Shown piece by piece: positions 1,176-44,318 of a stretch of DNA of 64,000 bases. The notes beneath the pieces are model-generated. The model ran no database searches, was not told the DNA's origin, and was given only the letters and a program-made list of their open reading frames with translations. The number at the start of each line of letters is the position of its first letter. Position 1 is the first letter of the stretch. A program made the translations under genes and the position numbers. This DNA is from a virus. The stretch covers positions 7,706 to 71,705 of IMG/VR virus record IMGVR_UViG_3300020576_004720. One strand, written 5' to 3'.

Positions 1176-1190
1176 AACAATATATTTTTG

Positions 1191-1264
1191 TAGACCCCAT
1201 CGGAATCGAACCGATATATCCAACATTATGAGTGTTGTTCTCTAACCAATTGAGATAGAGGTCT
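1191..1264 (-). tRNA. tRNA-Met (anticodon CAT)
   Basis: Cloverleaf read by hand. Acceptor AGACCTC/GGGGTCT with one G-U pair, D-stem TCTC/GAGA, anticodon stem CAACA/TGTTG with loop CTCATAA, T-arm ATCGG-TTCGATT-CCGAT, discriminator A. Confidence 0.8.
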
Positions 1265-2866: not shown

Positions 2867-2890
2867 ATGGTTTTTGTTTTTAAAAATAAG

Positions 2891-2969
2891 TTGAGATGGA
2901 TAGAATCGAACTACCGACCTTCAGCATGTCTAATAGGAGCTGACACTCTACCAACTGAGCTACATCTCA
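2891..2969 (-). tRNA. atypical tRNA-like gene (79 nt) with an expanded 13-nt anticodon region; identity unresolved
   Basis: Acceptor TGAGATG/CATCTCA, D-arm GCTC-AGTTGGTA-GAGT, T-arm GGTAG-TTCGATT-CTATC and discriminator A are canonical. The anticodon stem TCAGC/GCTGA encloses the 13 nt TCCTATTAGACAT instead of a 7-nt loop. Confidence 0.5.
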
Positions 2970-2981: not shown

Positions 2982-5090
2982 TTAAAATTTGATTTTTACT
3001 GTCCTTTTAAACGAACCCTGTAATTTTACAATGAGTTCATCTCTTACTGTAGCATTGAATCCTAAACCTGACAATTGACCTTTTGTAGATTCAATTGTAT
3101 TAGTAGCTCCTAGTACTTCCAACACTTTACGATGTTGAGCTAATTCAGGAATAAGGTTCTCATTGTGGAAACTTCTTATTGAAATAGGAGATTCGCACCC
3201 TTCAATCATAAAGAAATAATGCTTGTTGCCCACATTATCTTGCCAATGATTTGGTGATAAACAAACTAAGTTCACTTTATGAAACTGATTTGTGTCAAGA
3301 CCATAAATTTCCTTACTGGAAGATGTTTCTGGTAATAGGTGCTCTACTTGGAATACCCCATCTTTAATCGTAACATTAGCAACTTTCACATTGCCAGATA
3401 CTCTACGATCATAAGAGTAGTTATATATCTCACCATTTACCTCTATTTCTGCTTTAAAACCTTGACTGTTTCTTGCAGAGAATTGATTTACCCAGAATTC
3501 ATACTTACCATCTTTCAGTAGATTTCTGTCCTTGAAATAGATATTCTCAACAGCTAATCCATGAGGATAAGTATTATCTAAGTCAAGTTGTCCCCCGTAT
3601 TTTGAAAATCTATTTCCGTGGTCTTTTCTGAATCCTGCAGAGTAACCAATACTTTCACCATTAGGTTGTTTACACCAAGCATCCAAATCACTGGTATCTT
3701 GTCCAGTTTCATTCCAAATCATGGAAAATCTCAAAAAGCCATCTATATTTCCACCTTTGGTCTTTACAGCTTCTTTTATCTCTGATTTTCCAGCAAGATT
3801 ACCATTGTATGTCCAAGAATAGTTATTAGACCATTTCATAATAGGTTTACTCTCTTTTACATTTGCTGTGGTAAGTGTAACCATATTACGTTCATGGTTA
3901 TTCTGAAGGAATACCTCTACAGATGTGCAGGAAGGTAGTATATCCTTCATGAATTTATCAATATTGATTTCCTCAATATCTTTAAACTCACTACGTTTAT
4001 GACGAGTGGATGTAGATTTTACACCATCGAACATTGACGTAGCTTTTATCTTACTTTCTGCAGCAATGTGAAGGATTTCAGATGCACGAATATCTGAAAT
4101 TGTAGCCATCCTACGATCAAATGATTCAACATAACCATTTTCCTCAACAAATTTACGAGCTTCCTCAATTTGTTTTTTGGTAATTGGAGCTGTAGCCTTC
4201 ATGTAGTTTACAGGATCTACACGAATATTCCAAGCTTTACATGCTTCATTAAGCTCTTTTCCTTCTGCAAGCTCAGTACACAATACACCAATAAGCTCAT
4301 TTTTGAATTTAGCTATTGGGAGTTTGTATGAAGTTACCCAGCACCAGTTCTCCCTTTTGTCTGCAGATAAAGCATCGTATTGAGCCTTATATGGAATAAA
4401 CTGTTCTACTTTGAACAGGTGAGTTCTTCCATCCAACAAAGAATCTTGGTTAATAAGGTCTTTTACAAGCATTAGTGTATCCATAGGAATCTCCTGCATA
4501 GCTCTTTGAAACACATTCTTAGCATCCCTGTAACTTCCCATCAGTTGTTCTACTGAAGCACCTGACATATCAACATATTCCTTAGGAAGGTCAAGAAATA
4601 AGTGCTCAAAGGTGACAATCTCGTCAGGTTTTACAACACCAAACTTCTCAGCTTCTTCTTTTGTATACCTTTTATGGTTCTTATCAATTCCTAGACGAAA
4701 TACTGAATTTGTCTTTTTACAAGACTCATAAGGGAGAGAATTAAGCTCATCAAAAGTTTCAAAGAAAACATTCTCAATAGATGAAGCTTTGATTTTTTGA
4801 GAAAGCTCTTTTGCTGTATTCTCATACTCTCCTTCAATAATTACGTCAAAAATAGACATAAGATTAAAATTCTCATCCAAAGCAACAATATTTCCATACC
4901 TTCGTATGAAATTGTTACAGAGATTACAGTTATGAACAGAGCTATCAGGATCTCTGAACTTTGGATCTTTTCCAAATGACTGTAAATAAGCATCCCATAC
5001 TTGGGAACCTGTCATTTTTACACGAAACAGCTTTCCAGTTTTGCACATTTTGTCAAACTGCTGCTGTACTTTTTGTTGAAATGATTTCAT
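2982..5090 (-). CDS. large hypothetical protein (702 aa)
   Basis: Long intact ORF. No confident motif assignment. Confidence 0.6.
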   Translation of the reverse strand: MKSFQQKVQQQFDKMCKTGKLFRVKMTGSQVWDAYLQSFGKDPKFRDPDSSVHNCNLCNNFIRRYGNIVALDENFNLMSIFDVIIEGEYENTAKELSQKIKASSIENVFFETFDELNSLPYESCKKTNSVFRLGIDKNHKRYTKEEAEKFGVVKPDEIVTFEHLFLDLPKEYVDMSGASVEQLMGSYRDAKNVFQRAMQEIPMDTLMLVKDLINQDSLLDGRTHLFKVEQFIPYKAQYDALSADKRENWCWVTSYKLPIAKFKNELIGVLCTELAEGKELNEACKAWNIRVDPVNYMKATAPITKKQIEEARKFVEENGYVESFDRRMATISDIRASEILHIAAESKIKATSMFDGVKSTSTRHKRSEFKDIEEINIDKFMKDILPSCTSVEVFLQNNHERNMVTLTTANVKESKPIMKWSNNYSWTYNGNLAGKSEIKEAVKTKGGNIDGFLRFSMIWNETGQDTSDLDAWCKQPNGESIGYSAGFRKDHGNRFSKYGGQLDLDNTYPHGLAVENIYFKDRNLLKDGKYEFWVNQFSARNSQGFKAEIEVNGEIYNYSYDRRVSGNVKVANVTIKDGVFQVEHLLPETSSSKEIYGLDTNQFHKVNLVCLSPNHWQDNVGNKHYFFMIEGCESPISIRSFHNENLIPELAQHRKVLEVLGATNTIESTKGQLSGLGFNATVRDELIVKLQGSFKRTVKIKF

Positions 5091-5549: not shown

Positions 5550-6059
5550 TTAGGAGTTGATAGGTATGAGTAATGCTTTTTCAGTAAATACCTCTGCTAC
5601 TTTGTCAGATTGCTTATCAAACTCAAGCATAACCTTTACTACAGCTTCTAAGCCACGTATCTGGTCAGCACGAATTTCTCCAGCAGTGTAATTCTTATAC
5701 TCCTTATAATAAATTGAAGTATTTGTTTCAAAAGCATATTCGATCTTTTTCAACTCTTCTTCTGTAAATTCCGTAGCTTCAATATTCTCTATAATTTTTT
5801 CCCACATCTCAGGATCATCACGAATAAAACTTAAAAAAGGTGAAGGAGTTTGATAGTTTGCTGTAGTGGAAAACAAATGACCCCATATTTGATTTGTTTT
5901 ATTACAAATAAGGGTATTACCAAATTTACTAATTGTTCCACCCATACCTTTTGCTACAAGGTTACCTACGGCACAAGCTGTACAAGTACCTTTAACCAAT
6001 GTGCCATTGTTAACAGCGTCAAGGAATGTATCAATTGCTCTTTGAATACGACCAGTCAT
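5550..6059 (-). CDS. hypothetical protein (169 aa)
   Basis: ORF. Confidence 0.55.
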   Translation of the reverse strand: MTGRIQRAIDTFLDAVNNGTLVKGTCTACAVGNLVAKGMGGTISKFGNTLICNKTNQIWGHLFSTTANYQTPSPFLSFIRDDPEMWEKIIENIEATEFTEEELKKIEYAFETNTSIYYKEYKNYTAGEIRADQIRGLEAVVKVMLEFDKQSDKVAEVFTEKALLIPINS

Positions 6060-7046: not shown

Positions 7047-7071
7047 CATATAACCCCTAAAAATGGGGTAG

Positions 7072-7143
7072 TAGCCCCGATAGGACTCGAACCTATATTA
7101 AGAGTTTAGAAAACTCCCGTTCTATCCCTTGAACTACAAGGCC
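7072..7143 (-). tRNA. tRNA-Arg (anticodon TCT)
   Basis: Acceptor GGCCTTG/CGGGGCT with three G-U pairs, D-arm GTTC-AAGGGATA-GAAC, anticodon stem GGAGT/ACTCT with loop TTTCTAA, T-arm ATAGG-TTCGAGT-CCTAT. Confidence 0.6.
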
Positions 7144-8570: not shown

Positions 8571-8587
8571 AATAATTCATGAGTCCA

Positions 8588-8602
8588 CAGTTCCTAGGCT
8601 GT
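8588..8602. promoter_or_regulatory. CCTAGG-core motif CAGTTCCTAGGCTGT (copy 1)
   Basis: Intergenic, 18 nt upstream of the start of gene 8139..8570. Confidence 0.45.
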
Positions 8603-8713
8603 TTTTTAGTTGGACCATTGTTTTCCATAGAACATTTGGTGGATATTGGTAATATGTTATGGTTCAGGATTTTCACCTACATCACCACAAGTATTGGTCT
8701 AGCCAACATATTA

Positions 8714-9901
8714 TTAGTCAAGAAACAGTTCCAGAAGATCAACTTTATTCATATTATACACAATATCTCTGGCAATTTCTTTCTCGGTGTAAAACTTTGC
8801 ATTATCCTCATCAACGTATGCAATTCCATTGTGTACTTCTATATATGAACCTTTCAAGATTTTACCTGTTCTCACATCCAATTTACAGTTCACTGACTTG
8901 AGGTAATACTTTATCTTAGCTATATTCATATTGTCAAGCCTTGTAAAGACAAAATTTCCTGTTTTACTCAATTCCTCTTTACCTACGATTATACCTCTTG
9001 ACTTTAAATCATCATACCATTCATCAGGTATAACAATCGACTTTCCAATAAATAATGATCCAATCAATTCTTTGGCAAATGCAGGTACAAACTCTATACC
9101 TTCACTTACAGCATTTTTAAACGCTGCATATCCTATATTGGGAATATTAGCACAGAAAAAGTCAATAGGTACACTCTTAATTACTCTTATGAATATACCC
9201 TCATCATCTATTTTTGCCATGAATTTTCTGAAATAGTTGCTAATGTAGGCGCTGCTGGTAACCCTTGACTCATTTATTTCAATATTGTTAAAGTCAATAT
9301 CAAATAATCTCTTTACATCACTGTCATAGCAGCGTATCCCCTTTCTGTATACATTATAAGGAGAAGGTTCATTCTTGAAGAATATTCTTCCCACTTCATT
9401 TGCATAGTCATGCTTCCTGTCAAATGCAAAGTAATGATCCCAGTTAATCACGATGTCAGAGATTTCTTTTGACAAAGGAATGTAAATTGTGGTTTTATCA
9501 TCACAATACTCCAATTGATTCTCATCATTATAGAAGCATGTGGTCATTTCAAACCCTCCTTCATCAATAGCATTGGAGACAGTTTCCCTCAATGCCATCC
9601 ATGCTTTCCAATCCAACTCACCCATTCCTGCAGTAATGGATGTCTTTTGTCCATCAACAGTAAGAACACGAATAGGTGAATCACGGTGGAGAACAATTTC
9701 GCAGTCAATGTCTATCCTCCTTTTACCACTGTAAATAATAGGAAGAATGTCATTCCTTAGGTAATAAGCCAGAGCAAACTTATTCCCTGAACCATACTGT
9801 CCAATCTTGTCAGATGCTCCTCTCTTAGTAGAAGAACCAACAAGAGTAAGATCTTCATTGTGCATGAGACCATTGTTCACGATTTTCAGATACTTTTTCA
9901 T
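8714..9901 (-). CDS. hypothetical protein (395 aa; start moved to MKKYLKIV)
   Basis: The listed ORF 8714..9979 would contain the intergenic CCTAGG motif (9919-9933). The internal Met at 9899-9901 puts the motif upstream of the gene, as in copy 1. Confidence 0.5.
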   Translation of the reverse strand: MKKYLKIVNNGLMHNEDLTLVGSSTKRGASDKIGQYGSGNKFALAYYLRNDILPIIYSGKRRIDIDCEIVLHRDSPIRVLTVDGQKTSITAGMGELDWKAWMALRETVSNAIDEGGFEMTTCFYNDENQLEYCDDKTTIYIPLSKEISDIVINWDHYFAFDRKHDYANEVGRIFFKNEPSPYNVYRKGIRCYDSDVKRLFDIDFNNIEINESRVTSSAYISNYFRKFMAKIDDEGIFIRVIKSVPIDFFCANIPNIGYAAFKNAVSEGIEFVPAFAKELIGSLFIGKSIVIPDEWYDDLKSRGIIVGKEELSKTGNFVFTRLDNMNIAKIKYYLKSVNCKLDVRTGKILKGSYIEVHNGIAYVDEDNAKFYTEKEIARDIVYNMNKVDLLELFLD

Positions 9902-9918
9902 ATGAACTCTAAGTTTCC

Positions 9919-9933
9919 CAGTTCCTAGGCTGT
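9919..9933. promoter_or_regulatory. CCTAGG-core motif CAGTTCCTAGGCTGT (copy 2)
   Basis: Same 15-mer and flanks as copy 1: ...AGGCTGTTNTTTAGT. Confidence 0.45.
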
Positions 9934-9953
9934 TGTTTAGTGGAAACTTATTG

Positions 9954-9998
9954 AACCAGCGAGGGATTCGAACCCTCACTAAGCTCCTTAGGCTGGTT
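9954..9998 (-). ncRNA. tRNA-like minihelix (7-bp acceptor-like stem + short 5-bp/3-nt hairpin + canonical T-arm GAGGG-TTCGAAT-CCCTC); no D or anticodon arm
   Basis: Minus-strand read AACCAGC-CTAAGGAGCTTAGT-GAGGGTTCGAATCCCTC-GCTGGTT. It starts at the stop codon of gene 9998..10315. Confidence 0.5.
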
Positions 9999-10315
9999 TA
10001 TTGGTGTATTGTTTTGAGATAATGTGTGTATTCCATCATGGCATTGTCCCTTTTTATACTAAGTATTCTGATTTTAGTATCAGCAACAATCATCTGGATT
10101 CTGCATTTGTATGCCCATAATGCTTCGAAGTCCTTGTCAGACAGTTCAATATAAGCTCTACCTCTTATAAAGTTGAGCCTTGATTGAACACATGAGAAGC
10201 GTTCATGAATTTCATTAGCATAATCCCTTGGGACAGGAAATGTCATGCGATAGTTAACTACCTTTCCCCTTGCATCTACTATCGCTTCGATGCAGTTTGT
10301 TCTTACTCTTTTCAT
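9998..10315 (-). CDS. hypothetical protein (105 aa; start at MKRVRTN, ATGA-coupled to the upstream gene)
   Basis: The listed ORF 9998..10366 overlaps 10312..10533. The internal Met removes the overlap. Confidence 0.5.
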   Translation of the reverse strand: MKRVRTNCIEAIVDARGKVVNYRMTFPVPRDYANEIHERFSCVQSRLNFIRGRAYIELSDKDFEALWAYKCRIQMIVADTKIRILSIKRDNAMMEYTHYLKTIHQ

Positions 10316-10533
10316 GGTTTTGTGGTTTTGTTTAAAGTGATTGTAATATACATTGCCAGTCCACATATTCCTGCAATTAGGAACATAAACAATGTTGCCA
10401 TTGCATCTGTATTAATTCCAGGAAAAAATGGATTCTCCCCATTCTTGAGAAATAAATTCCCAAAACCTACTCCTGCAAATAATACCAGATTAAATGCAAA
10501 ATAGGAGAATAATAACCAGTCTTTTGTTTTCAT
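10312..10533 (-). CDS. small membrane protein (73 aa, two transmembrane segments)
   Basis: Two hydrophobic stretches. Confidence 0.5.
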   Translation of the reverse strand: MKTKDWLLFSYFAFNLVLFAGVGFGNLFLKNGENPFFPGINTDAMATLFMFLIAGICGLAMYITITLNKTTKP

Positions 10534-10538
10534 GTTTT

Positions 10539-10772
10539 TTAGTTTAAATGGTTGATAATCAGAACACTAGTAATATTAGCATCCTTATGTCTTTTGTAAG
10601 ACCCAATAGTCCTAAAGCCGTCATCCATGCATTTGCAGTAGATGTACGATACACTCATTGGATCTTTGAATCCAAATAAGTCTATAGGATCATTAGGTCC
10701 TATAACCTCATAGATTGCCTTATCATCTGTTTTTTCGATGGCGATGAGTTCCATCATGGCTTTGTACTTCAT
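10539..10772 (-). CDS. hypothetical protein (77 aa)
   Basis: ORF. Confidence 0.45.
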   Translation of the reverse strand: MKYKAMMELIAIEKTDDKAIYEVIGPNDPIDLFGFKDPMSVSYIYCKCMDDGFRTIGSYKRHKDANITSVLIINHLN

Positions 10773-10781
10773 TTTTACAAT

Positions 10782-10949
10782 TTATTGGTTTTCAAATTCC
10801 TTATACAGCTTCTCACTGCACAAGATTACTACTTCTTTACTAGTTGCTTGAAGATCCCAGTCTCTCAACTTTTGATCTACAAATGGTCTCCAGCAGTTAT
10901 AATACTCCTGCCAAGACATTGTCACCTTGATCATCTTTTCTGTTTTCAT
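10782..10949 (-). CDS. small hypothetical protein (55 aa, MKTEKMIKVTMSWQEYYNCWRPF...)
   Basis: Unlisted sub-60-aa ORF that fills the gap between two minus-strand genes. Translated by hand. Confidence 0.35.
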   Translation of the reverse strand: MKTEKMIKVTMSWQEYYNCWRPFVDQKLRDWDLQATSKEVVILCSEKLYKEFENQ

Positions 10950-10987
10950 TTTATATATAGGGTTTTATAACTCCTCCCAGAAGTTTA

Positions 10988-11033
10988 GAGCCAAGCTGGG
11001 GAATCGAACCCCAACCTACACTCCTACCTTGGC
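10988..11033 (-). ncRNA. tRNA-like minihelix (acceptor-like stem AGCCAAG/CTTGGCT + T-arm TGGGG-TTCGATT-CCCCA; no D or anticodon arm)
   Basis: Begins at the stop codon of gene 11033..11254. Confidence 0.45.
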
Positions 11034-11254
11034 TATTGATGAAGTTTATTCCTTAAATCAATAAGGAATTTACGCTCATCACGTAATTCGTCTAAATACC
11101 ATCCCAATTCAAGATTCTCCTGATAGTCATCACCATCATCGTCATCTCTACATAAGAATTGAGGTTTAGGACGACCTGCTTCCATTTCAGCTTGGTCAAT
11201 CTCTTTCAACCTTTGGTTGATTTGGTCTTCTGACCAGTTTGTCATGCTTTCCAT
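11033..11254 (-). CDS. acidic hypothetical protein (73 aa, DDDDGDD tract)
   Basis: ORF. Confidence 0.45.
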   Translation of the reverse strand: MESMTNWSEDQINQRLKEIDQAEMEAGRPKPQFLCRDDDDGDDYQENLELGWYLDELRDERKFLIDLRNKLHQ

Positions 11255-11293
11255 AACTTTATACAGTTTTTATAGTAGTGTCTCTACTTTAGA

Positions 11294-11340
11294 AATAAAG
11301 GCATGACTTGAACATGCAGCCAACCTAGTTGGACTTTATT
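11294..11340 (-). ncRNA. tRNA-like minihelix (stem AATAAAG/CTTTATT + hairpin CCAAC-TAG-GTTGG + T-arm GCATG-TTCAAGT-CATGC)
   Basis: Begins 2 nt after the stop of gene 11343..11657. Same architecture as the elements at 9954 and 10988. Confidence 0.4.
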
Positions 11341-11342
11341 TG

Positions 11343-11657
11343 TTACAATGCTTCTTCAATAGACTCCTCTATTGAGACGAAGACTCCTTCTCTGATATCC
11401 TTAAGAATATCAGTTAATTGCCAATAATTACTTGGCAGTTCGGATGACAACATCCGAAATTTAATTATATTTTCTTGGGTCAAACCCAAGATTGTGTATC
11501 TTGGGTCATTACCCCAATGAAATACAATTTTATTCTCATACTCTGCGTAATACGCAGGGTTTGAGTGTGAGCTACAGCTCCTGATAGTTGCGTCTTTGTG
11601 TTCTTCTATAAACTTAATTAAGTTCAAGTTTGACACATTAAAATAATTTATACTCAT
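11343..11657 (-). CDS. hypothetical protein (104 aa)
   Basis: ORF. Confidence 0.5.
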   Translation of the reverse strand: MSINYFNVSNLNLIKFIEEHKDATIRSCSSHSNPAYYAEYENKIVFHWGNDPRYTILGLTQENIIKFRMLSSELPSNYWQLTDILKDIREGVFVSIEESIEEAL

Positions 11658-11833
11658 AATACTTGTGAGGTTTTAATTAGACTCAGGTTTCCTACCTCTA
11701 AACTGAGTTTGTTTATAAATTAATATCCTTATTATAGTGGAATGAACCCTGTTTCGACTCTTTTGAGTCATCATCAGCAGCACCACACAGTGCTGGACAG
11801 GAAGCAGTTTAATGACATACTCAGGTCTTAAGA

Positions 11834-12043
11834 CTAAGGGTTCCAAATCTTTAATAATCTGGAATGCAATCTCCTAGCCTTAGCTAAGGAGATTTTATTG
11901 TTTGTCTCAATCCACCTACCATCAAGCTTTATTGCCTGATACCATGTACATGTTATAATCGCCCTGCATATACATGTTTTTGGTAGGTTGGTAACGAAAC
12001 CATCCTCGTCAATTCTTGTTTCCTGCCTTTCGGCTTTTATCAT
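11834..12043 (-). CDS. hypothetical protein (69 aa); doubtful
   Basis: ORF at the edge of the divergent region. It contains a strong hairpin at 11868-11896. Confidence 0.3.
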   Translation of the reverse strand: MIKAERQETRIDEDGFVTNLPKTCICRAIITCTWYQAIKLDGRWIETNNKISLAKARRLHSRLLKIWNP

Positions 12044-12311
12044 AGTGTTTTATTTTGTTTTTGTTTTTGTTTTGTCAACACACTTTAATATTGGCAGTGT
12101 TGTTCTCCAAATTATTCATAGTTGATTGGATTTCTACCCAAGTTGTTGATTTTCATAGGTTTAGATATGGGGGGTACTAGGCGACTTCTAACTTGACCAA
12201 GCCACCAAATCTATATATCCTCCCCAAAATCACGCATAAAAACAAAAAAAAAATAAAAATTTTTTTAATTTAAAAAGTTAATTTACCTTTGTATCACAAA
12301 ACCAAGATAGT
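12044..12311. promoter_or_regulatory. divergent control region between the leftward and rightward gene blocks
   Basis: No ORF. (TTTTG)n tract at 12046-12070. Long A and T runs at 12240-12280. TACCTTTG (a TAnnTTTG-type -7 element) at 12282-12289, just upstream of the first rightward gene. Confidence 0.5.
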
Positions 12312-12731
12312 ATGGTAACTAATTTACAAGGGACTCAATTAGCAGTTTCTCTCTTAACTCCTCAGGAAAAAGAACTAACCTCTGATGGTTATCACTCCTT
12401 TAAAGAACTCTACGAATTTAGAAAGTTATACAATGCTGCATTATTTAATGAATGGTCTACTCAAGGATCTACAGAGATAGGTAGGGACGGGGAATATTCT
12501 AGTACAAGTAAATATGATGTTCACAAATCTTGGAAACATAATGATGGAGAATTGTGTTTTGGAGGTGGGTGGTTTGTCGTTGTAGCTATGTTACCTACAG
12601 GACAGATTACAAACCACTATAAAGCAGAAGATTGGGACCTTTTTAAAATTCCTGAAACAGAGAAAGCTAAATATCCTTTTGATGGACATACTTCTCAAGA
12701 TGTATTACAAAGATTAAAAGACTTATTATGA
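12312..12731 (+). CDS. hypothetical protein (139 aa)
   Basis: First gene of the rightward block. Confidence 0.55.
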   Translation: MVTNLQGTQLAVSLLTPQEKELTSDGYHSFKELYEFRKLYNAALFNEWSTQGSTEIGRDGEYSSTSKYDVHKSWKHNDGELCFGGGWFVVVAMLPTGQITNHYKAEDWDLFKIPETEKAKYPFDGHTSQDVLQRLKDLL

Positions 12732-13390
12732 AAGATCCAAATAGGGAAAGAAAGAATGAAATAAAGTACAATGTTACTTTAAATGATGAACAGAAAGAAG
12801 CTAAAAGATTAATTGTTGAAAATCAAATAGTTATAATTACAGGTAGGGCAGGTTCTGGAAAGTCTCTTGTTGGTGCTCAGACTGCACTGGATTTTCTTAA
12901 TAAGAAGATGTGTGATAAAGTGCTGGTAACCAGAGCAATGATTGAACTGGAGGATGATTCTATGGGATTTCTTCCTGGTTCTAAGAATGAGAAATTTGCG
13001 CCTTATATGGAAGCCTTCAGAGAAAATCTGGAGAAGTGTATAGATAAGGTAAAAGTTCAAGACTTGATTACTGCAGAAAGAATCATCGCTGGTCCTATTA
13101 ATTTCATAAGAGGTAAAACAATTGATGATGTTCTAATAGTTGAAGAAGCTCAAAACTTAACAAGGTTCCAAATGCTTTCTATTCTGACGAGACTTGGAAA
13201 GACAGGAAAGATGATAATAAATGGTGATAATGACCAACAGGATATAAATTTAAAACATGAATCTCAAAATGGTCTGCAATTTGCAATAGAGCTTTCTAAA
13301 AATATTAAAGATATAAAAAGAATAAATCTTAAAGAGAATCATAGGTCAGATCTTGTAGGAAAGATTCTAGACTTTGTTTATAACAAATAA
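12728..13390 (+). CDS. phoH: PhoH-like ATPase
   Basis: Walker A GRAGSGKS and the conserved PhoH core (VLVTRAMIELEDDSMGFLPG...KFAPYM...INGDNDQQD). Confidence 0.85.
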   Translation: MKDPNRERKNEIKYNVTLNDEQKEAKRLIVENQIVIITGRAGSGKSLVGAQTALDFLNKKMCDKVLVTRAMIELEDDSMGFLPGSKNEKFAPYMEAFRENLEKCIDKVKVQDLITAERIIAGPINFIRGKTIDDVLIVEEAQNLTRFQMLSILTRLGKTGKMIINGDNDQQDINLKHESQNGLQFAIELSKNIKDIKRINLKENHRSDLVGKILDFVYNK

Positions 13391-38007: not shown

Positions 38008-38571
38008 ATGAAAGTAAGTTTAATATGTCCTGTTTGTAAATCTAAATTTGAAAAGGAAGAGAAATATATAAATTTTAGTATCAAAAAAGATTGGAAAATT
38101 TATTGTTCAAATGAATGTAAGCATATAGGAAAAGCAAAAGAATATAATTATAAATGTGCAAATTGTGGTAAAGATTTGATAGTTACTCCTAGTAGAATTA
38201 AAAGGTCTAAAACAGGAAATTTATATTGTAGTAAAAAGTGTTCGACTATAAAAAACAATACTCTTTTTAAAAAATGGGAAAATCATCCTCAATATAAAAC
38301 TGGTATAGGTAGTTATAGATGGATAAAGATAAAATCAATGAAGGAATTAAAATGTGAGGAATGTAATTTTGATAACCCTTTAGCTTTAGAAGTTCATCAT
38401 AAAGATAGAAATAGAAAAAATAATAATCTTGATAACTTACAACTACTTTGTTGTAATTGTCATACAATAAAGCATAAAACAGGTAGTGGGCTAATTGGTA
38501 AGCCGCCACATTTGGGATGTGGACATCATGCAGAATCGTCCTCTGTCTACCTGACACAAAAGATTGAATAA
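38008..38571 (+). CDS. HNH homing endonuclease (HNH-1), with N-terminal Cys-rich zinc fingers
   Basis: LEVHHKDRNRKNNNLDNLQLLCCNCHTIKH (HNH motif) and CPVCKSKF...C...C. Confidence 0.8.
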   Translation: MKVSLICPVCKSKFEKEEKYINFSIKKDWKIYCSNECKHIGKAKEYNYKCANCGKDLIVTPSRIKRSKTGNLYCSKKCSTIKNNTLFKKWENHPQYKTGIGSYRWIKIKSMKELKCEECNFDNPLALEVHHKDRNRKNNNLDNLQLLCCNCHTIKHKTGSGLIGKPPHLGCGHHAESSSVYLTQKIE

Positions 38572-38625
38572 TTTAAGCGACTAAGTTATAAAATAGATGG
38601 TTCGAATCCATTCATTGCCACATAG

Positions 38626-38700
38626 GTCCATATGGCTGAGAGGTCAAAAGCAACAATCTGCAAAATTGTAAAACCGTTGGTTCAAATCCAACTATGGACT
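38626..38700 (+). tRNA. tRNA-Cys (GCA)
   Basis: Acceptor GTCCATA/TATGGAC, anticodon stem ACAAT/ATTGT with loop CTGCAAA, T-arm GTTGG-TTCAAAT-CCAAC. Confidence 0.75.
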
Positions 38701-38706
38701 CTAAAT

Positions 38707-38780
38707 GCCTCCTATGCAGATATGGTGCTGCGTCTGCCTTGTAAGCAGAAATAGAGAGTTTTCGAGTAACTCAGGAGGAT
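38707..38780 (+). tRNA. tRNA-Thr (TGT)
   Basis: D-arm GCAG/CTGC, anticodon stem TCTGC/GCAGA with loop CTTGTAA, T-arm GAGTT-TTCGAGT-AACTC. Positions 1 and 72 are a G-A mismatch. Confidence 0.65.
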
Positions 38781-38786
38781 CTAAAA

Positions 38787-38860
38787 GGTAACTAAGCAAT
38801 TGTTGGTCAATGCATCTGTTTGAAGAACAGACTAACTCAGTTCGAACCTGAGAGTTACCA
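38787..38860 (+). tRNA. tRNA-Phe (GAA)
   Basis: Acceptor GGTAACT/AGTTACC, anticodon stem TCTGT/ACAGA with loop TTGAAGA, T-arm CTCAG-TTCGAAC-CTGAG. Confidence 0.8.
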
Positions 38861-38865
38861 CAGAT

Positions 38866-38936
38866 ACCTCGTTGGTGTAATGGTAGCACAAGAGCTTCCA
38901 AACCTCTTGGAACCTTTTCGATTAGGGTACGAGGTG
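38866..38936 (+). tRNA. tRNA-Trp (CCA)
   Basis: Acceptor ACCTCGT/ACGAGGT, anticodon loop TTCCAAA (one C-C mismatch at the base of the anticodon stem), T-arm ACCTT-TTCGATT-AGGGT. Confidence 0.65.
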
Positions 38937-38959
38937 CAGGATACTGGATGAAGAAAAAT

Positions 38960-39032
38960 TCCAATATGGGGTAATTGGTAACCCGACTGACTTTGATTCA
39001 GTAGATTCTAGGTTCGAACCCTAGTATTGGAT
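38960..39032 (+). tRNA. tRNA-Gln (TTG)
   Basis: Acceptor TCCAATA/TATTGGA, anticodon stem ACTGA/TCAGT with loop CTTTGAT, T-arm CTAGG-TTCGAAC-CCTAG. Confidence 0.8.
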
Positions 39033-39034
39033 CT

Positions 39035-39107
39035 GGTGGTTATAGCTTAATGGTAGAGCGGTACATTGTGGCTGTATTATGTGAGGGTTCGAGTCCCTTT
39101 AATCACC
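39035..39107 (+). tRNA. tRNA-His (GTG), with G-1
   Basis: Acceptor GTGGTTA/TAATCAC preceded by an extra G that pairs with C73. Anticodon loop TTGTGGC. T-arm GAGGG-TTCGAGT-CCCTT. Confidence 0.75.
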
Positions 39108-39114
39108 CTGTAAA

Positions 39115-39187
39115 CCACTTTTAGTTAAACTGGAAATAACCTTTGACTACGGATCAAAAATTATCTGTTCGAATCAGATAAAGTGGT
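39115..39187 (+). tRNA. tRNA-Arg (ACG)
   Basis: Acceptor CCACTTT/AAAGTGG, anticodon stem TTTGA/TCAAA with loop CTACGGA, T-arm ATCTG-TTCGAAT-CAGAT. Confidence 0.75.
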
Positions 39188-39390
39188 CAAAAATATATAT
39201 CTTTGTAGTATGAGAAATATCACACTTTATACTGGAGTTGGTGGTTATATAATGTTTCAAGAGTCATTAGAACAAATAACTCTTGGGACTAGAAGAGTAT
39301 ATATAGGCAAAAAGGTCCCTAGAATACTAAGAAAAGTTCATAAGAAAATAGAAAAAGCAGAAAACGGAAAATATTTTTTTAGAACAAAAA

Positions 39391-39428
39391 AATAAATTTG
39401 GATTTTTAAAAAATACATTGTATATTTG
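39391..39428 (+). promoter_or_regulatory. promoter family copy 3 (AAATAAATTTGG - 20 nt - TATATTTG)
   Basis: Exact consensus. Confidence 0.55.
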
Positions 39429-39457
39429 CACTAATTAAAAGTTATAGACATTCACAA

Positions 39458-39544
39458 ATGCAATCTTTAAATATCATAGCGATGGTGAAAGGTAATATTG
39501 AGGATAGAAACTCAATAGGGTTTGTGTTGTCTTTCTGTAAGTGA
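39458..39544 (+). CDS. candidate leader peptide (28 aa, MQSLNIIAMVKGNIEDRNSIGFVLSFCK) upstream of the Lys-Val-Arg-Asn-Met...Gly-Glu-Asp-Ile tRNA array
   Basis: Short ORF between promoter copy 3 and the terminator at 39567-39600. Codons AAA/AAG, GTG, AGA, AAT/AAC, ATG, GGG/GGT, GAG, GAT and ATC/ATT/ATA correspond to the downstream tRNAs. Confidence 0.35.
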   Translation: MQSLNIIAMVKGNIEDRNSIGFVLSFCK

Positions 39545-39566
39545 GAGTTAAGAAAATAAAATACAC

Positions 39567-39600
39567 AAGCCCTTCCCAAAAAGAAGGGCTTTTTTATTTC
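39567..39600 (+). terminator. rho-independent terminator / attenuator immediately 5' of tRNA-Lys
   Basis: AAGCCCTTC-CCAAAAA-GAAGGGCTT followed by TTTTTATTTC. tRNA-Lys starts at the next base. Confidence 0.65.
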
Positions 39601-39674
39601 TCCTCTTAACTCAGTTGGCTAGAGTAGTAAACTTTTAATTTACGAGTCGTGGGTTCGAGTCCCTCAGGGGAGAC
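39601..39674 (+). tRNA. tRNA-Lys (TTT)
   Basis: Acceptor CTCCTCT/AGGGGAG with a G-U pair, D-arm ACTC/GAGT, anticodon stem GTAAA/TTTAC with loop CTTTTAA, T-arm GTGGG-TTCGAGT-CCCTC with one U-U mismatch. Confidence 0.7.
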
Positions 39675-39679
39675 ATATA

Positions 39680-39752
39680 GAGGATTAACTCAGTTGGCAG
39701 AGTGCTTGTATTACAAACAAGAAGTCAGGATCTCGGAATTCCTATCCTCTAC
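39680..39752 (+). tRNA. tRNA-Val (TAC), non-canonical T-loop
   Basis: Acceptor AGAGGAT/ATCCTCT, anticodon stem CTTGT/ACAAG with loop ATTACAA. T-arm AGGAT-CTCGGAA-TTCCT lacks the usual TTC. Confidence 0.6.
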
Positions 39753-39757
39753 ACAAG

Positions 39758-39830
39758 TCCTTGTAACTCAACGGATAGAGTATTTGCCTTCTAAGCAAAA
39801 AGTTGTAAGTTCGATTCTTACCAAGGATAC
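39758..39830 (+). tRNA. tRNA-Arg (TCT)
   Basis: Acceptor GTCCTTG/CAAGGAT, anticodon stem TTTGC/GCAAA with loop CTTCTAA, T-arm GTAAG-TTCGATT-CTTAC. Confidence 0.75.
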
Positions 39831-39871
39831 AGGTGGGTTACCTTTCCCCGTGGAGTTAAAAAAGGAGATGT

Positions 39872-39945
39872 GGGAAGTTAGCTCATGTTGGTAGAGCAAA
39901 TGACTGTTAATCATTAGGTGAAGGGATCGTCACCCTTACTTCCCT
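39872..39945 (+). tRNA. tRNA-Asn (GTT), unusual T-loop ATCGTCA
   Basis: Acceptor GGGAAGT/ACTTCCC, D-arm GCTC/GAGC, anticodon stem AATGA/TCATT with loop CTGTTAA, T-stem AAGGG/CCCTT. Confidence 0.7.
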
Positions 39946-39950
39946 CATAA

Positions 39951-40022
39951 TGTGAGGTAATGCAGCGGTAGCAGAAAAGGCTCATACCCTTTTAGTCGGG
40001 AGTTCGAATCTCCCCCTCGCAA
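39951..40022 (+). tRNA. tRNA-Met (CAT)
   Basis: Acceptor TGTGAGG/CCTCGCA, anticodon stem AAAGG/CCTTT with loop CTCATAC, T-arm GGGAG-TTCGAAT-CTCCC. Confidence 0.75.
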
Positions 40023-40046
40023 CAGAAAAATTACTATCTTTGCAAT

Positions 40047-40511
40047 ATGGAAAAATATTTTCGGACACAAGATGGTAAAATAGTAAATATCATCGAACAT
40101 ACGCTAGATCAGATTGAAAAATTCAATCATCTAGAAATATCTATCGGAACAGATAGTCAAGACTGGGGACAAGATACCGTTTATGTAACTTGTATAGCTT
40201 ATAGATATGGAAGAAGAGGTGCTCATTTTATTTACTTAAAAGAAGTTGTATCAAGAATAAAAGATTTTAGTCAATTTACAAGATTATATGGAGAAGGATT
40301 AAGAACTCTTGAAATACATGATACTTTGACTCAAGATATCCCTATTGCTGTTAAAGCTTTGGAATTTGATTTTGCAGATGCAAAGAAAACTATAAGTTCT
40401 AAATTAGTTTCTGCGTTTAAAGGTTATGCAAACTCAACTTTTAAAACTGGAGAAATGATAGCATGTAAGGCTGCAGATCACGTCATAAGACACCCTTCTG
40501 TATATAAATAA
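40047..40511 (+). CDS. hypothetical protein (154 aa) embedded in the tRNA island; weak RNase H-like/DUF458-like GTDSQ motif
   Basis: ORF. ISIGTDSQDWGQDTVYVTCIAY is the only suggestive motif. Confidence 0.45.
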   Translation: MEKYFRTQDGKIVNIIEHTLDQIEKFNHLEISIGTDSQDWGQDTVYVTCIAYRYGRRGAHFIYLKEVVSRIKDFSQFTRLYGEGLRTLEIHDTLTQDIPIAVKALEFDFADAKKTISSKLVSAFKGYANSTFKTGEMIACKAADHVIRHPSVYK

Positions 40512-40634
40512 GTGTTACTGATGTACACAGTGTCGTAGTCCCTCTTAAGCCTCTGATTCAAGCTCAAATGAAGAGTGTAATCGTAAAGTACACATAGTTA
40601 ATAGGTTCTATCGGGCGTACAAAAACCTAAACCT

Positions 40635-40708
40635 GCAGTAGTAGTTCAATTGGTAGAATGCCGTCCTTCCAAGTCGGAGGTTTGCAAGTTCGAGTCTTGT
40701 CTACTGCA
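40635..40708 (+). tRNA. tRNA-Gly (TCC)
   Basis: Acceptor GCAGTAG/CTACTGC, D-arm GTTC-AATTGGTA-GAAT, anticodon loop CTTCCAA, T-arm GCAAG-TTCGAGT-CTTGT. Confidence 0.7.
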
Positions 40709-40711
40709 CAT

Positions 40712-40785
40712 GCCATGTTTGACTAGCGGTCTAGGTCAACACTCTTTCACGGTGTTATTCATGGGTTCGAATCCCATACATGGTA
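40712..40785 (+). tRNA. tRNA-Glu (TTC)
   Basis: Acceptor GCCATGT/ACATGGT with G1-U72, anticodon stem ACACT/GGTGT with loop CTTTCAC, T-arm ATGGG-TTCGAAT-CCCAT. Confidence 0.75.
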
Positions 40786-40789
40786 CTAA

Positions 40790-40864
40790 CGCCTATTAGG
40801 GGAGTTGGTCGTCCCTGTTCCTCTGTCTAAGGAAAGATCCTCGGTTCGAATCCGTGATAGGCGA
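40790..40864 (+). tRNA. tRNA-Asp (GTC)
   Basis: Acceptor CGCCTAT/ATAGGCG, D-stem GGGG/CCCT, anticodon stem TTCCT/AGGAA with loop CTGTCTA, T-arm CTCGG-TTCGAAT-CCGTG. Confidence 0.7.
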
Positions 40865-40867
40865 CAT

Positions 40868-40944
40868 GCTGATGTATCCTCTCTGGCTTATATCCAGTTG
40901 AAAAGGTAGTTGGTTACACATTAGTTCGAATCTAATCATCAGTA
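40868..40944 (+). tRNA. irregular tRNA-like gene (77 nt), possible tRNA-Ile(TAT)-like; D-arm missing or displaced
   Basis: Acceptor GCTGATG/CATCAGT and T-arm ATTAG-TTCGAAT-CTAAT are clear. The only anticodon-like hairpin is CTGG-CTTATAT-CCAG, which gives TAT. A D-loop-like GTAGTTGGTTAC sits where the variable region should be. Confidence 0.4.
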
Positions 40945-40947
40945 CAA

Positions 40948-40984
40948 AATAAATTTGATAAATTCGAACTTTTATCTTATATTG
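40948..40984 (+). promoter_or_regulatory. promoter family copy 4 (TTTG - 20 nt - TATATTG) with an embedded TTCGAAC hairpin; drives HNH-2
   Basis: AAATAAATTTGATAAATTCGAACTTTTATCTTATATTG is homologous to the HNH-1 promoter region. Confidence 0.5.
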
Positions 40985-41004
40985 TATATATAAAGTATAC
41001 AATA

Positions 41005-41550
41005 ATGGTTAAAAAGACAAAAATTTTGGAACTTTTTCATAAAGGATTTAGTTCTGCTGAAATATCTAAACAGTTAAGATGCTCTAAATCAACAGTAAGT
41101 TATCATTGTTCAAAATTTATTAACAAAGTTGATAAATATACACCTGAATTATTAAAAATATATCAGGATGCTTATGATCAAGGATTATCTTTTAAAGGTG
41201 TTGCTGATAAATTTAAAGTATCAAGACAATTATTAGGTAAAAAATTAAAAGCAAGAAAACTTACAAAACTTCAAATTAAACAAAAAGCTGACAAAAGAAA
41301 AAAAGGCTATAGGTTAAAAGTAAAAGAACAATGTGTAGAATATAAAGGAGGGAAATGTTGTAAATGTGGATATAATAAATGTCTTGCTGCTTTAGAATTT
41401 CATCATATTGATCCTAATAAAAAAGATTATACTATAAGTGGTGGAACTAAAAGTTTTCAAAACTTAAAGTCTGAATTAGATAAATGTATTTTAGTGTGTA
41501 AAAATTGTCATGCAGAGATACATTTTCAAATAATTAATAATGACTTGTAG
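41005..41550 (+). CDS. HNH homing endonuclease (HNH-2) with an N-terminal helix-turn-helix
   Basis: LEFHHIDPNKKDY...CKNCHAEIH (HNH motif) and AEISKQLRCSKSTVSYH (HTH-like). Confidence 0.8.
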   Translation: MVKKTKILELFHKGFSSAEISKQLRCSKSTVSYHCSKFINKVDKYTPELLKIYQDAYDQGLSFKGVADKFKVSRQLLGKKLKARKLTKLQIKQKADKRKKGYRLKVKEQCVEYKGGKCCKCGYNKCLAALEFHHIDPNKKDYTISGGTKSFQNLKSELDKCILVCKNCHAEIHFQIINNDL

Positions 41551-41613
41551 CTCAAATGGTAGAGCGTTACACTGATAATGTAAAGGTAGTGAGATCGTTA
41601 CTCACCAAGTCAA
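41541..41613 (+). tRNA. tRNA-Ile (GAT), overlapping the last 10 nt of HNH-2
   Basis: Acceptor TGACTTG/CAAGTCA, D-arm GCTC-AAATGGTA-GAGC, anticodon stem TTACA/TGTAA with loop CTGATAA, T-arm GTGAG-ATCGTTA-CTCAC. Confidence 0.75.
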
Positions 41614-41770
41614 CTAAGGGGGTGCATGTTCCAAGGCTGGCGAAGTAGTTTTGCAAACTATTTGAGAAGATTTCGATTATCTTCATCTCCACAAAATAAA
41701 TTTTGGAAGAAAAAAGAAAAGTTGTATTTTTGCCTTGGTTTTTATAGGCATCATTGTCACGGAATAGAAA

Positions 41771-41805
41771 GTCCTTCTAGAAATAGAAGGATTTTTTATT
41801 TTGAC
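41771..41805 (+). terminator. rho-independent terminator
   Basis: AGTCCTTCTA-GAAA-TAGAAGGATT followed by TTTTTATTTT. Confidence 0.65.
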
Positions 41806-42178
41806 TAATATCCCTTATTTTTGCCAAAAGGTTTTTTCCAACTTTTATCCTTTAGCACAATAAAAGTTATCTATTAAAACTAGTATGAAAGTAACTAATT
41901 CATACGATAGGATGTATAAATATCAAGCAATGTCTATCCGTGACAACTTGTACCTGCAAGAAAAAACCAAGTAGGCTAAAATACATTCCTCCGTGAAAAT
42001 ATAAAGTCCTCATAATCAACAGCCTACATGGTGAAAAGATGAGGCACAGGGACACGGGAGTTTTAGGTTAGATGAGTCTATCTAAATGCTTGAAGATAGA
42101 AACCCTACTTGCAGGGATAAACGGAGGTGTGTTTGGTAATATCAGAAATATTTAGTATATTATAATAAAAGTATAAAA

Positions 42179-43978: not shown

Positions 43979-44016
43979 AATAAATTTGGTTTTTGTAAAT
44001 TATTATACTATATTTG
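43979..44016 (+). promoter_or_regulatory. promoter family copy 5 (AAATAAATTTGG - 20 nt - TATATTTG)
   Basis: Exact consensus. The ATG of the leader ORF lies 5 nt downstream. Confidence 0.55.
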
Positions 44017-44020
44017 CATC

Positions 44021-44092
44021 ATGAAAAATAACAAACTATATAGTTCCTTATCGTATCTCTTACAAAGTAAGAGCAGGGATTATATTGTTTAA
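44021..44092 (+). CDS. candidate leader peptide (23 aa, MKNNKLYSSLSYLLQSKSRDYIV) of the Leu-Leu-Ser-Ser-Tyr tRNA operon
   Basis: 12 of 23 codons are Leu/Ser/Tyr (CTA, TTA x2, CTC, TAT x3, AGT x2, AGC, TCC, TCG). This matches the five downstream tRNAs. A terminator follows 25 nt after the stop. Confidence 0.4.
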   Translation: MKNNKLYSSLSYLLQSKSRDYIV

Positions 44093-44117
44093 AAATAATT
44101 ATATTGTTTACAATAAA

Positions 44118-44149
44118 ACCCTGCCAATTTTGGTGGGGTTTTTCTTTTT
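44118..44149 (+). terminator. rho-independent terminator / attenuator abutting tRNA-Leu
   Basis: ACCCTGCCAA-TT-TTGGTGGGGT (10-bp stem with two G-U pairs) followed by TTTTTCTTTTT. tRNA-Leu starts at the next base. Confidence 0.65.
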
Positions 44150-44235
44150 GGGGATGTGGTGGAATTGATAGACACCCTAGACTTAGGATCTAGTGTTAAT
44201 AAACTGGCGTGAGAGTTTGAATCTCTCCATCCCTA
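44150..44235 (+). tRNA. tRNA-Leu (TAG), type II with long variable arm
   Basis: 86 nt. Acceptor GGGGATG/CATCCCT, anticodon stem CTAGA/TCTAG with loop CTTAGGA, T-arm GAGAG-TTTGAAT-CTCTC. Confidence 0.7.
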
Positions 44236-44240
44236 CAAAT

Positions 44241-44314
44241 GGTCTAGTAAGCTAACTGGGAAAGCTATAAAACTTAAAATTTTATGTTTGTGAGTTCGAA
44301 TCTCACCTAGACTA
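44241..44314 (+). tRNA. tRNA with anticodon TAA (Leu UUA) but short type I architecture (74 nt)
   Basis: Acceptor GGTCTAG/CTAGACT, anticodon stem TAAAA/TTTTA with loop CTTAAAA, T-arm GTGAG-TTCGAAT-CTCAC. Variable region is only 5 nt. Confidence 0.6.
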
Positions 44315-44318
44315 CAAT

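Follow-up and report, generated by a model that had tools for sequence, protein, structure and literature searches.

What are tRNA-shaped units without an anticodon arm doing at the stop codons of phage genes? The question is raised by a 64,000-nucleotide (nt) stretch of the viral record IMGVR_UViG_3300020576_004720 (IMG/VR database; positions 7,706 to 71,705), referred to below as the window. Here three short elements, named el1, el2 and el3, lie in intergenic position and on the coding strand, all inside 1.4 kilobases (kb). Each unites a stem resembling the acceptor stem of a tRNA with a T arm, with just 10-19 nt between the two. The initial annotation, made from the sequence of the window, took them for bare minihelices serving as punctuation marks, possibly sites at which ribonuclease (RNase) P and RNase Z cut a polycistronic early transcript into monocistronic messages.

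Window positions 9800-11800 were read on both strands. The three elements are found on the minus strand, like the local genes, where they had been annotated, except that el2 is placed at 10990-11033 instead of 10988-11033. All three were identified by inspection of the sequence and by the design scan described below. The first, el1 (9954-9998, minus strand), reads from 9998 to 9954 AACCAGC / CTAAG GAG CTTAG T / GAGGG TTCGAAT CCCTC / GCTGGTT. Its parts are the 5′ acceptor strand (9998-9992), a D-like connector hairpin (9991-9978), the T arm with the loop TTCGAAT (9977-9961), the 3′ acceptor strand (9960-9954) and a discriminator C at 9953. Element el2 (10990-11033, minus strand) reads from 11033 to 10990 GCCAAGG / TAGGAGTGTAGGT / TGGGG TTCGATT CCCCA / GCTTGGC. 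Element el3 (11294-11340, minus strand) reads from 11340 to 11294 AATAAAG / T CCAAC TAG GTTGG CT / GCATG TTCAAGT CATGC / CTTTATT, the T arm being GCATG TTCAAGT CATGC and the connector hairpin CCAA(C) TAG (G)TTGG. A 7-base-pair (bp) acceptor-like stem had been assigned to all three; el1 and el3 have it, with seven Watson-Crick pairs each, whereas the el2 acceptor comprises six Watson-Crick pairs, pair 7-66 being a G.G. Even so, el2 can form a 12-bp stack, partitioned 6+6 via a U.G pair. As annotated, the connector forms a hairpin in two of the three elements, el1 and el3; that of el2, TAGGAGTGTAGGT, contains two GG and no hairpin.

The elements are tightly coupled to the ends of genes. Their distances from the upstream stop codon, annotated as 0-2 nt, measure -1 nt for el1, -1 nt for el2 and +2 nt for el3. 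Element el1 begins on the final A of the TAA at 9998-10000 (gene 9998-10315) and el2 on the G of the TAG at 11033-11035 (gene 11033-11254); el3 begins 2 nt past the TAA at 11343-11345 (gene 11343-11657). Downstream, the gap to the following ATG is 40 nt for el2 and 39 nt for el3, in line with the annotated spacing of about 40 nt, from which el1 departs with a gap of 52 nt. The description of the flanking genes as consecutive does not hold: four genes stand between el2 and el1.

Such arrangements occur well above chance. A strict scan calling for a TTCRANN loop, a 5-bp T stem, an abutting 7-bp acceptor (at most one mismatch, no G-U) and a connector of 5-25 nt returned, in the window and outside true tRNAs, exactly el1, el2 and el3. 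In 100 dinucleotide shuffles of the window the mean number of strict matches was 0.23 and the maximum 1, and the three elements thus exceed the random frequency that the initial annotation had weighed as a possible explanation. Relaxed motif scans of the window gave counts at the level of the shuffles and no convincing additional member. Other ways of drawing the fold were considered as well. An extended T hairpin is the energy-minimum fold of el1 and el2; it was rejected, its extra helix pairing 53.5% of cells, which equals background. The T arm cannot be read as an anticodon arm because its stem abuts the 3′ acceptor strand without a spacer. The idea that the connector corresponds to the long variable arm of class II tRNAs (with serylation as a possible consequence) was dropped, the identity elements of acceptor and discriminator being unshared and the conserved GG suiting a D loop better. 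No significant structure was found in the intergenic region 11658-11833.

Further members of the family were found by reading the window plus about 10 kb on each side, and in relatives (given here by L numbers) fetched via homologues of the 395-amino-acid (aa) protein encoded downstream of el1 (8714-9901, minus strand), at identities from 96% down to 36%. A fourth element, el4, lies on the same strand about 4.3 kb beyond the left end of the window (L021 9345-9390; identical in L023 and L024). It reads TCCCACA / GTAAGACGGTACAAA / TGAGG TTCGAAT CCTTA / TGTGGGA, then C CTAAAAA, and starts 7 nt past the stop of a 249-aa gene. Relatives provide nine additional variants. In L027 and L028, el1 is identical to that of the window, though the flanking 395-aa protein is 88% and 76% identical, respectively. 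In L029, where this protein is 74% identical, the el1 slot holds AACAGTA / AGTTGTTGGAGCTTTA / GGTGG TTCGATT CCACC / TACTGTT, and in L059, at 39% identity, it holds AACAGTA / AGCTGTTGGAGCTTGTA / GATGG TTCGATT CCATC / TACTGTT. Versions of el3 are present in L027, L028 and L029. Other copies lie at L029 68-117, L029 3083-3126, L059 5751-5797 and L033 13106-13148, that at L029 3083-3126 being related to el2 (acceptor ACCAAGG/TCTTGGT), and a copy at L030 1323-1364 has its 12-bp stack split into 5+7 bp. In strains 97-100% identical to the window the elements are unchanged and lie inside blocks without any variation; these strains are therefore uninformative on selection.

Judging from the more divergent copies, the structure of the elements is under selection. 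Between el1 and its same-slot copies, which could be swapped paralogues and not strict orthologues, there are six double compensatory changes in the case of L029 and five in the case of L059, with no single-sided change and no broken pair in either. Among the el3 versions of L027, L028 and L029, the acceptor changes are compensatory too. Across the family alignment 99.3% of cells pair, a percentage that is partly built in, since the scan that found the members demanded paired stems and the alignment follows the model; comparisons within one slot are for this reason the cleaner evidence. Ten of the 12 pairs have changed on both sides, and the covariation score is 0.82, as against 0.19 after shuffling and 0.03-0.15 when the partners are slid. 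Every copy keeps a stack of 12 bp in total, even where it is partitioned as 5+7 (L030) or 6+6 (el2), and G53-C61 and T54 T55 C56 R57 A58 are invariant among the 12 distinct copies. The G.U pairs found in the T stem of el4, at L029 475 and at L029 3083 are workable on the gene-sense strand only, indicating that RNA, not DNA, is the form in which the structure matters. A covariance model made from five copies and searched over 842 kb recovered only elements of the family and none beyond those of the simple scan; it missed el2, el4 and the L030 copy. Conservation in related phages, on which the initial annotation had made its proposal depend, is thus observed, and with compensatory changes.

These data also bear on the idea that the elements are decaying tRNA pseudogenes, produced by internal deletions and devoid of present function. 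The genome is rich in tRNAs, aberrant tRNA-like genes occur at 2890-2969 and in the el1 slot of L031, and the family is dispensable in most relatives, all of which a pseudogene origin would accommodate. Decay would hardly keep every pair intact through five to six double compensatory changes in same-slot copies, with the T-loop invariant and the connector hairpin covarying; nor would it preserve an identical el1 where the flanking protein is only 76-88% identical, or at least four elements of one design per genome. We regard this explanation as highly improbable.

How complete is the resemblance to tRNA? The absence of a D arm, asserted in the initial annotation, was an overstatement, the connector apparently acting as a D arm in miniature. 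Connectors of the el3 subfamily form a stem of 4 bp closed by a loop of 5 nt (CCAA[ATAGG]TTGG, CTAG[ATAGG]CTAG and CCAG[AATGG]CTGG); in the el1 subfamily the corresponding sequences are AGTT[GTTGG]AGCT, AGCT[GTTGG]AGCT and ATCT[GCTGG]AGAT. The stems vary in a compensatory manner and the loops end in GG. Stems are missing from the connectors of el2, L029 3083 and L030. All connectors carry a GG (14/14), for which the joint chance is about 6e-6 if nine lineages are taken as independent. This pattern fits a miniature D arm whose equivalents of G18 and G19 would dock on T55 and C56 to make an elbow. It is the elbow that RNase P, RNase Z and the CCA-adding enzyme recognise (reviews PMC4810234, PMC4919913). 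Since the D-like connector could form such an elbow, the elements are better described as anticodon-arm-less tRNAs than as bare minihelices.

The 3′ flanks were compared with those of the tRNAs of the window. In 26 of 26 tRNAs the sequence continues with the discriminator, a C and then A or T; no CCA is encoded and position 75 is never C or G, which suggests a uniform route of 3′ maturation. An N73-C74-TAA(A) trailer, as in the phage tRNAs, follows el2, el3, el4 and the L030 copy. The trailers of el2 (T C TAAA, 10989-10984) and el3 (T C TAAA, 11293-11288) are identical to those of tRNA-Cys and tRNA-Thr.

When measured against known RNA classes, the elements share with the tRNA fold (RF00005) the stacked 7-bp acceptor and 5-bp T stem and the T-loop invariants, and lack the anticodon stem-loop of a canonical tRNA; ARAGORN and Rfam call nothing at their positions. 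A permissive cmscan of positions 9700-11900 yielded no tRNA match for el1 or el3 and a 19-bit tRNA-Sec match (E = 1.4) including el2. No Rfam family, Y RNAs included, matches the elements even at a permissive threshold. Assignment to transfer-messenger RNA (tmRNA) is not supported either: in the aligned copies pair 3-70 is C-G, U-A or A-U, never G.U, and ARAGORN finds no tmRNA. They differ from the tRNA 3′ fragments of the attachment-site (att) type, which integrating elements leave behind, in that both acceptor strands are present, and complementary, in every copy. As to intrinsic terminators, a terminator scan flagged only the T arm of el3 (5-bp stem), and the sequences after el1 (CAATAAG), el2 (TCTAAAC) and el4 (CCTAAAA) contain no U tract.

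The elements occupy the sole sizeable gaps in otherwise tightly packed gene runs, and they mark cassette borders. In L027 (1160-1290, against window 10950-11342) the 73-aa gene and el2 are missing together, and the body of el3 is fused to the downstream flank of el2 (TCTAAAACTTCTGGGAGGAGTTATAAAACCC) at the common TCTAAA trailer; from its sequence, the junction looks like gain or loss of a cassette bounded by elements. In L029 an element follows the 395-aa gene, a place without one in the window. Past 10310, L007 no longer resembles the window at all (a chimeric or divergent tail), and another gene lies upstream of its el1 slot. In L031, at about 39% protein identity, the el1 slot contains an intrinsic terminator followed by a tRNA-like gene of 86 nt (9886-9971, = L032 1589-1674). 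The acceptor, D and T arms of this gene are sound, its anticodon arm is defective and it has an extra arm; it may represent a stage between a full tRNA and the short elements. In L030, terminator-like hairpins lie in neighbouring gaps. The elements, then, mark the 3′ edge of small exchangeable gene cassettes, a place taken elsewhere by terminators or by full or decaying tRNAs.

Much of this could be expected if the elements were 3′-end hairpins independent of tRNA enzymes, and junctions between cassettes, their tRNA likeness being merely inherited from tRNA genes. Such hairpins would shield the message from 3′ exonucleases or weakly terminate transcription, and would act at the DNA level as short shared sequences for gene swapping. 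The fusion at TCTAAA in L027 with loss of the 73-aa gene and el2, the element found after the 395-aa gene in L029 but not in the window, the different gene upstream of the el1 slot in L007 and the terminator hairpins in the same slots of L030 and L031 all agree with this explanation, as does the fact that the T arm of el3 together with CTTTATTTCT scores as a weak terminator. A plain hairpin, however, needs no invariant TTCRA, no G53-C61, no GG connector and no fixed 12-bp stack; the extended-hairpin fold is not conserved, and el1, el2 and el4 are without a U tract. We consider the explanation rather unlikely.

We propose instead, with moderate confidence, that the elements may be cis-acting signals for host RNase P and for RNase Z or the CCA-adding enzyme, in the manner of the t-elements of plant mitochondria. 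The elements would be transcribed within the leftward early-gene mRNA and fold into a coaxial acceptor/T-stem helix of 12 bp with a canonical T-loop and a miniature D-like hairpin or loop, the GG of which would dock to form the elbow. Lacking an anticodon arm, they cannot decode. Immediately 3′ of the discriminator the RNA would be cut by RNase Z, or trimmed by exonucleases and then completed by the CCA-adding enzyme; this 3′ cut would release the downstream cistron with a leader of defined length, about 40-50 nt, and the upstream message would end in a compact, tRNA-like structure resistant to exonucleases. RNase P could also cut at +1, releasing a minihelix of 45-50 nt. Bacterial RNase P and the CCA-adding enzyme accept minihelices made of acceptor stem and T arm as substrates. 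Consistent with the proposal, the elements retain the tRNA parts that RNase P, RNase Z and the CCA-adding enzyme read. We infer every enzymatic step from what was observed directly, namely the structure, the selection on it, the tRNA-type invariants, the position and the sense-strand polarity.

Several points weigh against this proposal, among them the part of the pairing percentage that is built in, the possible swapping of same-slot copies and the invariance of the near-identical strains, all mentioned above. Most of the others concern the predicted cleavage sites. At el1, el2 and the L030 copy the +1 base belongs to the stop codon, of which an RNase P cut would leave UA. In the copies at L029 1791, L059 5751 and L059 6115 the 5′ acceptor strand takes in the stop together with the last two sense codons. 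A cut at +1 would thus remove part or all of the stop in at least six members and, consequently, cutting into monocistronic mRNAs as put forward in the initial annotation is not the whole story: 5′ cleavage either does not take place, or is tied to translation, or silences the upstream message. In the el1 subfamily, moreover, the stem is followed by C-A-A and not by N-C-T, and position +1 is A in 11 of the 12 distinct copies, an A1-U72 pair being unusual for bacterial tRNAs. Finally, among metagenome loci of more distant relatives 79 of 80 are without an element, making the family dispensable for this type of phage. This figure and the presence of a canonical T arm in only 5 of the 74 slots upstream of 395-aa gene homologues confine the family to a small clade; it is no general trait of this phage group. 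Relatives anchored on a 702-aa DUF8224 gene (216 kb, including LR756500.1 and phi17:2) contain no elements, and 813 kb of more distant relatives gave only about two dubious AT-rich matches.

Release of the minihelix leads to a further alternative, that the minihelix itself is the product: a trans-acting tRNA-like small RNA for which the position in the mRNA is merely a route of expression. Acting as decoy or sponge, it could possibly draw off tRNA-directed toxins or nucleases of host defence that read the acceptor end or the elbow, or it could compete for the CCA-adding enzyme or T-loop modification enzymes. Retention of elbow and acceptor end with the decoding part discarded would make sense for such an RNA, as would the several different acceptor sequences in each genome and the free-standing minihelices met elsewhere (in L129, with a CCA and by a tRNA array, and in Clostridioides difficile phages, where it resembles a small-RNA gene; see below). 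Yet the acceptors share no identity set, with neither G3.U70 nor a common discriminator, and the tight coupling to stop codons and cassette borders would be unneeded. Pfam and PHROG scans revealed no recognisable partner enzyme encoded in the window; those of 30 window proteins gave no RNase, ligase or CCA-adding enzyme. A trans-acting product strikes us as unlikely, and processing in cis remains the reading that we prefer.

The leaders that a 3′ cut would define have features of their own. Between el1 and the next ATG lies a leader hairpin (9911-9949, minus strand) with the stem AAGTTTCC/GGAAACTT and the loop ACTAAACAACAGCCTAGGAACTG; in an RNAalifold prediction from six copies, 8 of the 10 predicted pairs are kept through double changes. 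The leader module is seen just upstream of start codons at 9911-9949 and about 8578-8620 in the window (both minus strand), at L028 1186-1240 and at L029 1838-1895 and 3127-3192. Its stems vary (AAGTTTCC/GGAAACTT, AAGTTCTC/GAGAACTT, AGGTATCCA/TGGATACTT and TCTATGGGTC/GATCTATAGA) and its loop is conserved (CTAAA[AC]AACAGC[CG]TAGGAAC). A repeated motif, CAAATGGGGGACAGC....ATCTGAACA, stands 10-15 nt before the start codons of several genes in relatives (L030 795-840 and 2485-2527; L029 120-160) and represents a second type of leader, separate from the CAGCCTAGGAAC type. At window 8632-8711 (minus strand), 2 nt past the stop of the 395-aa gene, a decayed tRNA-like fold can be drawn by eye (ATATGTT/AACATAT, loop TGAAAAT); it is unsupported, with a folding z of -1.1 and no Rfam match. 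L029 holds a clean element in this slot.

Are comparable elements found outside this clade? IMG/VR was scanned for GGAGMTT followed, after a gap of 4-8 nt, by GGTTCGAWTCC. The pattern matched 118 times, 76 of the matches being tRNAs; such a motif-biased sample shows existence only and not frequency. Clean non-tRNA elements of the same design do exist in unrelated phages. Two per contig lie on the coding strand in L120 (3297-3341 and 4045-4086, minus strand) and in L187 (2483-2529 and 3689-3731, minus strand). L196 also has two on the coding strand (4579-4619 and about 5615-5660, plus strand), with a similar leader (...CAACCGAAGG, then ATG), and the copy at 4579 overlaps a TAG stop. These three contigs have 60-66% GC and are unrelated to the window; L196 and L120 have no match among cultured phages. 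In L129 (6093-6143, plus strand; the same in L137) an element with the acceptor CGTGCCG, the D arm GCTCC GGTAGG GGAGC, a T arm and an encoded CCA adjoins a tRNA array. The elements of L120, L187, L196 and L129 belong to no Rfam family. An unannotated minihelix, GGAGAT / ACAGGAGATTA / TTAATGG TTCGATT CCATTAA / ATCTCC, is present in C. difficile phages with genomes of about 132-134 kb (L132 10364-10406, minus strand; MF547662.1, Clostridioides phage LIBA6276, at about 129.5 kb) and sits between a hairpin and a terminator-like run, downstream of a gene for a DNA-binding protein.

The lineages with such elements accordingly comprise AT-rich relatives of Flavobacteriia phages, GC-rich contigs and large Clostridioides phages. 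One might wonder whether tRNA top halves without an anticodon arm form a general class of phage RNA that passes polycistronic messages to the tRNA processing machinery of the host; we offer this as a tentative and somewhat doubtful extension. If it were true, the cut would in many cases come at or inside the stop codon, which would mean either processing coupled to termination or messages deliberately left without a stop, as in mitochondria.

The genes adjoining the elements were taken from the list of open reading frames. The 105-aa gene at 9998-10315 (minus strand), whose TAA shares its last base with el1, has 20 of the 27 single-nucleotide polymorphisms (SNPs) that distinguish strains between 10082 and 10234 at third codon positions, an excess by which it is judged to be a real gene under purifying selection. 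The 73-aa gene at 11033-11254 (minus strand), whose TAG stop shares its G with el2, is called in 10 metagenomic contigs. The 104-aa gene at 11343-11657 (minus strand), which stops 2 nt before el3, is an orphan, with no homologue outside its own strain cluster.

Full tRNAs in equivalent positions of the same leftward block had been pointed out in the initial annotation, and ARAGORN and Rfam bear this out, on the same strand. Intergenic slots are occupied by tRNA-Met (1190-1264, minus strand) and tRNA-Arg(TCT) (7071-7143, minus strand). An atypical full-length tRNA-like gene of 80 nt with an irregular anticodon arm (2890-2969, minus strand; Arg-CCT according to ARAGORN) begins 12 nt past the end of the 702-aa gene and precedes the next start by 23 nt. 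In all, 23-26 tRNAs are called in the window by ARAGORN and Rfam, with a large array on the opposite strand (tRNAs at 38480-44495). Three aberrant tRNA-like genes on the plus strand (39679-39751, 40868-40944 and 41618-41691) escape ARAGORN; one was found by Rfam only and two by the design scan only. Within the array stand genes resembling homing endonucleases of the HNH (twice) and GIY-YIG types (38008-38568, 41005-41547 and 44676-45305, plus strand), comparable to the seg genes in the tRNA region of phage T4.

The window has a GC content of 32%. Its positions 9000-13000 match none of 50,697 phage records at the DNA level, and neither protein-anchored scans of IMG/VR nor scans with the 3′ halves of the elements gave a match. 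The 702-aa DUF8224 protein shares 65% identity with a protein of LR756500.1, an uncultured phage of 462 kb, and 52-53% with proteins of Cellulophaga phages phi17:2 and phi4:1. Given these similarities, the host probably belongs to the Flavobacteriia.

In full-text literature searches, with subscription journals outside their cover, no such phage elements were found described, and an earlier description is possible. The claim of novelty made in the initial annotation therefore holds for phages as far as these searches go, and falls short for tRNA-like processing elements in mRNA generally, which are known (t-elements, PMC1920247; mascRNA, PMC11693755). The kind of element is thus familiar from organelles and new for phages, and a processing function is plausible. 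If the elements are indeed processed, tRNA-shaped punctuation, so far seen in organelles and in two eukaryotic nuclear transcripts, would extend to bacteriophages, and the smallest tRNA-like unit kept by selection for this job would be a 12-bp stack with a T-loop and a GG loop. This would also give a concrete reason for phage tRNA-like genes to persist without decoding. For gene annotation, the elements are of a sort that tRNA finders and Rfam overlook. Their overlap with stop codons raises testable questions on the coupling of termination, ribosome rescue and RNase P, and their place at cassette borders links RNA processing signals with mosaic gene exchange.

Among known tRNA-like RNAs, YrlA-type Y RNAs, some of them in phages, carry a tRNA-like module with an elbow of T and D arms (PMC4201824). 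Unlike the phage elements, which have no Rfam match, Y RNAs are independent genes with a helix that binds Ro60. The tRNA mimics mascRNA and menRNA, from the MALAT1 and MEN-beta transcripts, are cut by RNase P and RNase Z to give the 3′ end of the upstream RNA and a small RNA (PMC11693755). They differ from the phage elements in being eukaryotic and nuclear, with a full cloverleaf of reduced anticodon loop and a single copy per transcript. Closer in shape is the tRNA-like domain of tmRNA, which likewise has an acceptor stem, a T arm and a short analogue of the D loop with GG, and no anticodon arm. The GG of this analogue lies in a YUGGA-like sequence. In contrast to tmRNA, the phage elements have no mRNA-like reading frame, pseudoknots or G3.U70, and their two halves are contiguous in about 46 nt.

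Closer in setting are the mitochondrial systems. In animal mitochondria, tRNA-shaped units likewise stand between the cistrons of a polycistronic RNA, and cutting leaves an incomplete stop codon (U or UA), as predicted for el1 and el2. There, however, the units are full, functional tRNAs and polyadenylation completes the stop, whereas the phage elements are without an anticodon arm and their host is not known to complete stop codons. The t-elements of plant mitochondria are tRNA-like structures in the flanks of mRNAs, with an acceptor-like stem and a T arm of the conserved sequence GGTTCRANYCC (Forner et al. 2007, PMC1920247). Their ends coincide with the 5′ and 3′ termini of mRNAs, they are processed by RNase P and RNase Z, and some lie in or at the end of reading frames (PMC1920247). 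A t-element being defined as such a fold next to or within a coding region (PMC1920247), the phage elements would qualify on the basis of their predicted fold. Belonging to a bacteriophage system, they are smaller (44-52 nt) and more uniform than t-elements, have a defined miniature D-hairpin, abut or overlap stop codons and mark exchangeable cassettes. What the t-elements of plant mitochondria and haloarchaea and the phage elements have in common is that they fill the same type of slot that full tRNAs occupy elsewhere in the genome.

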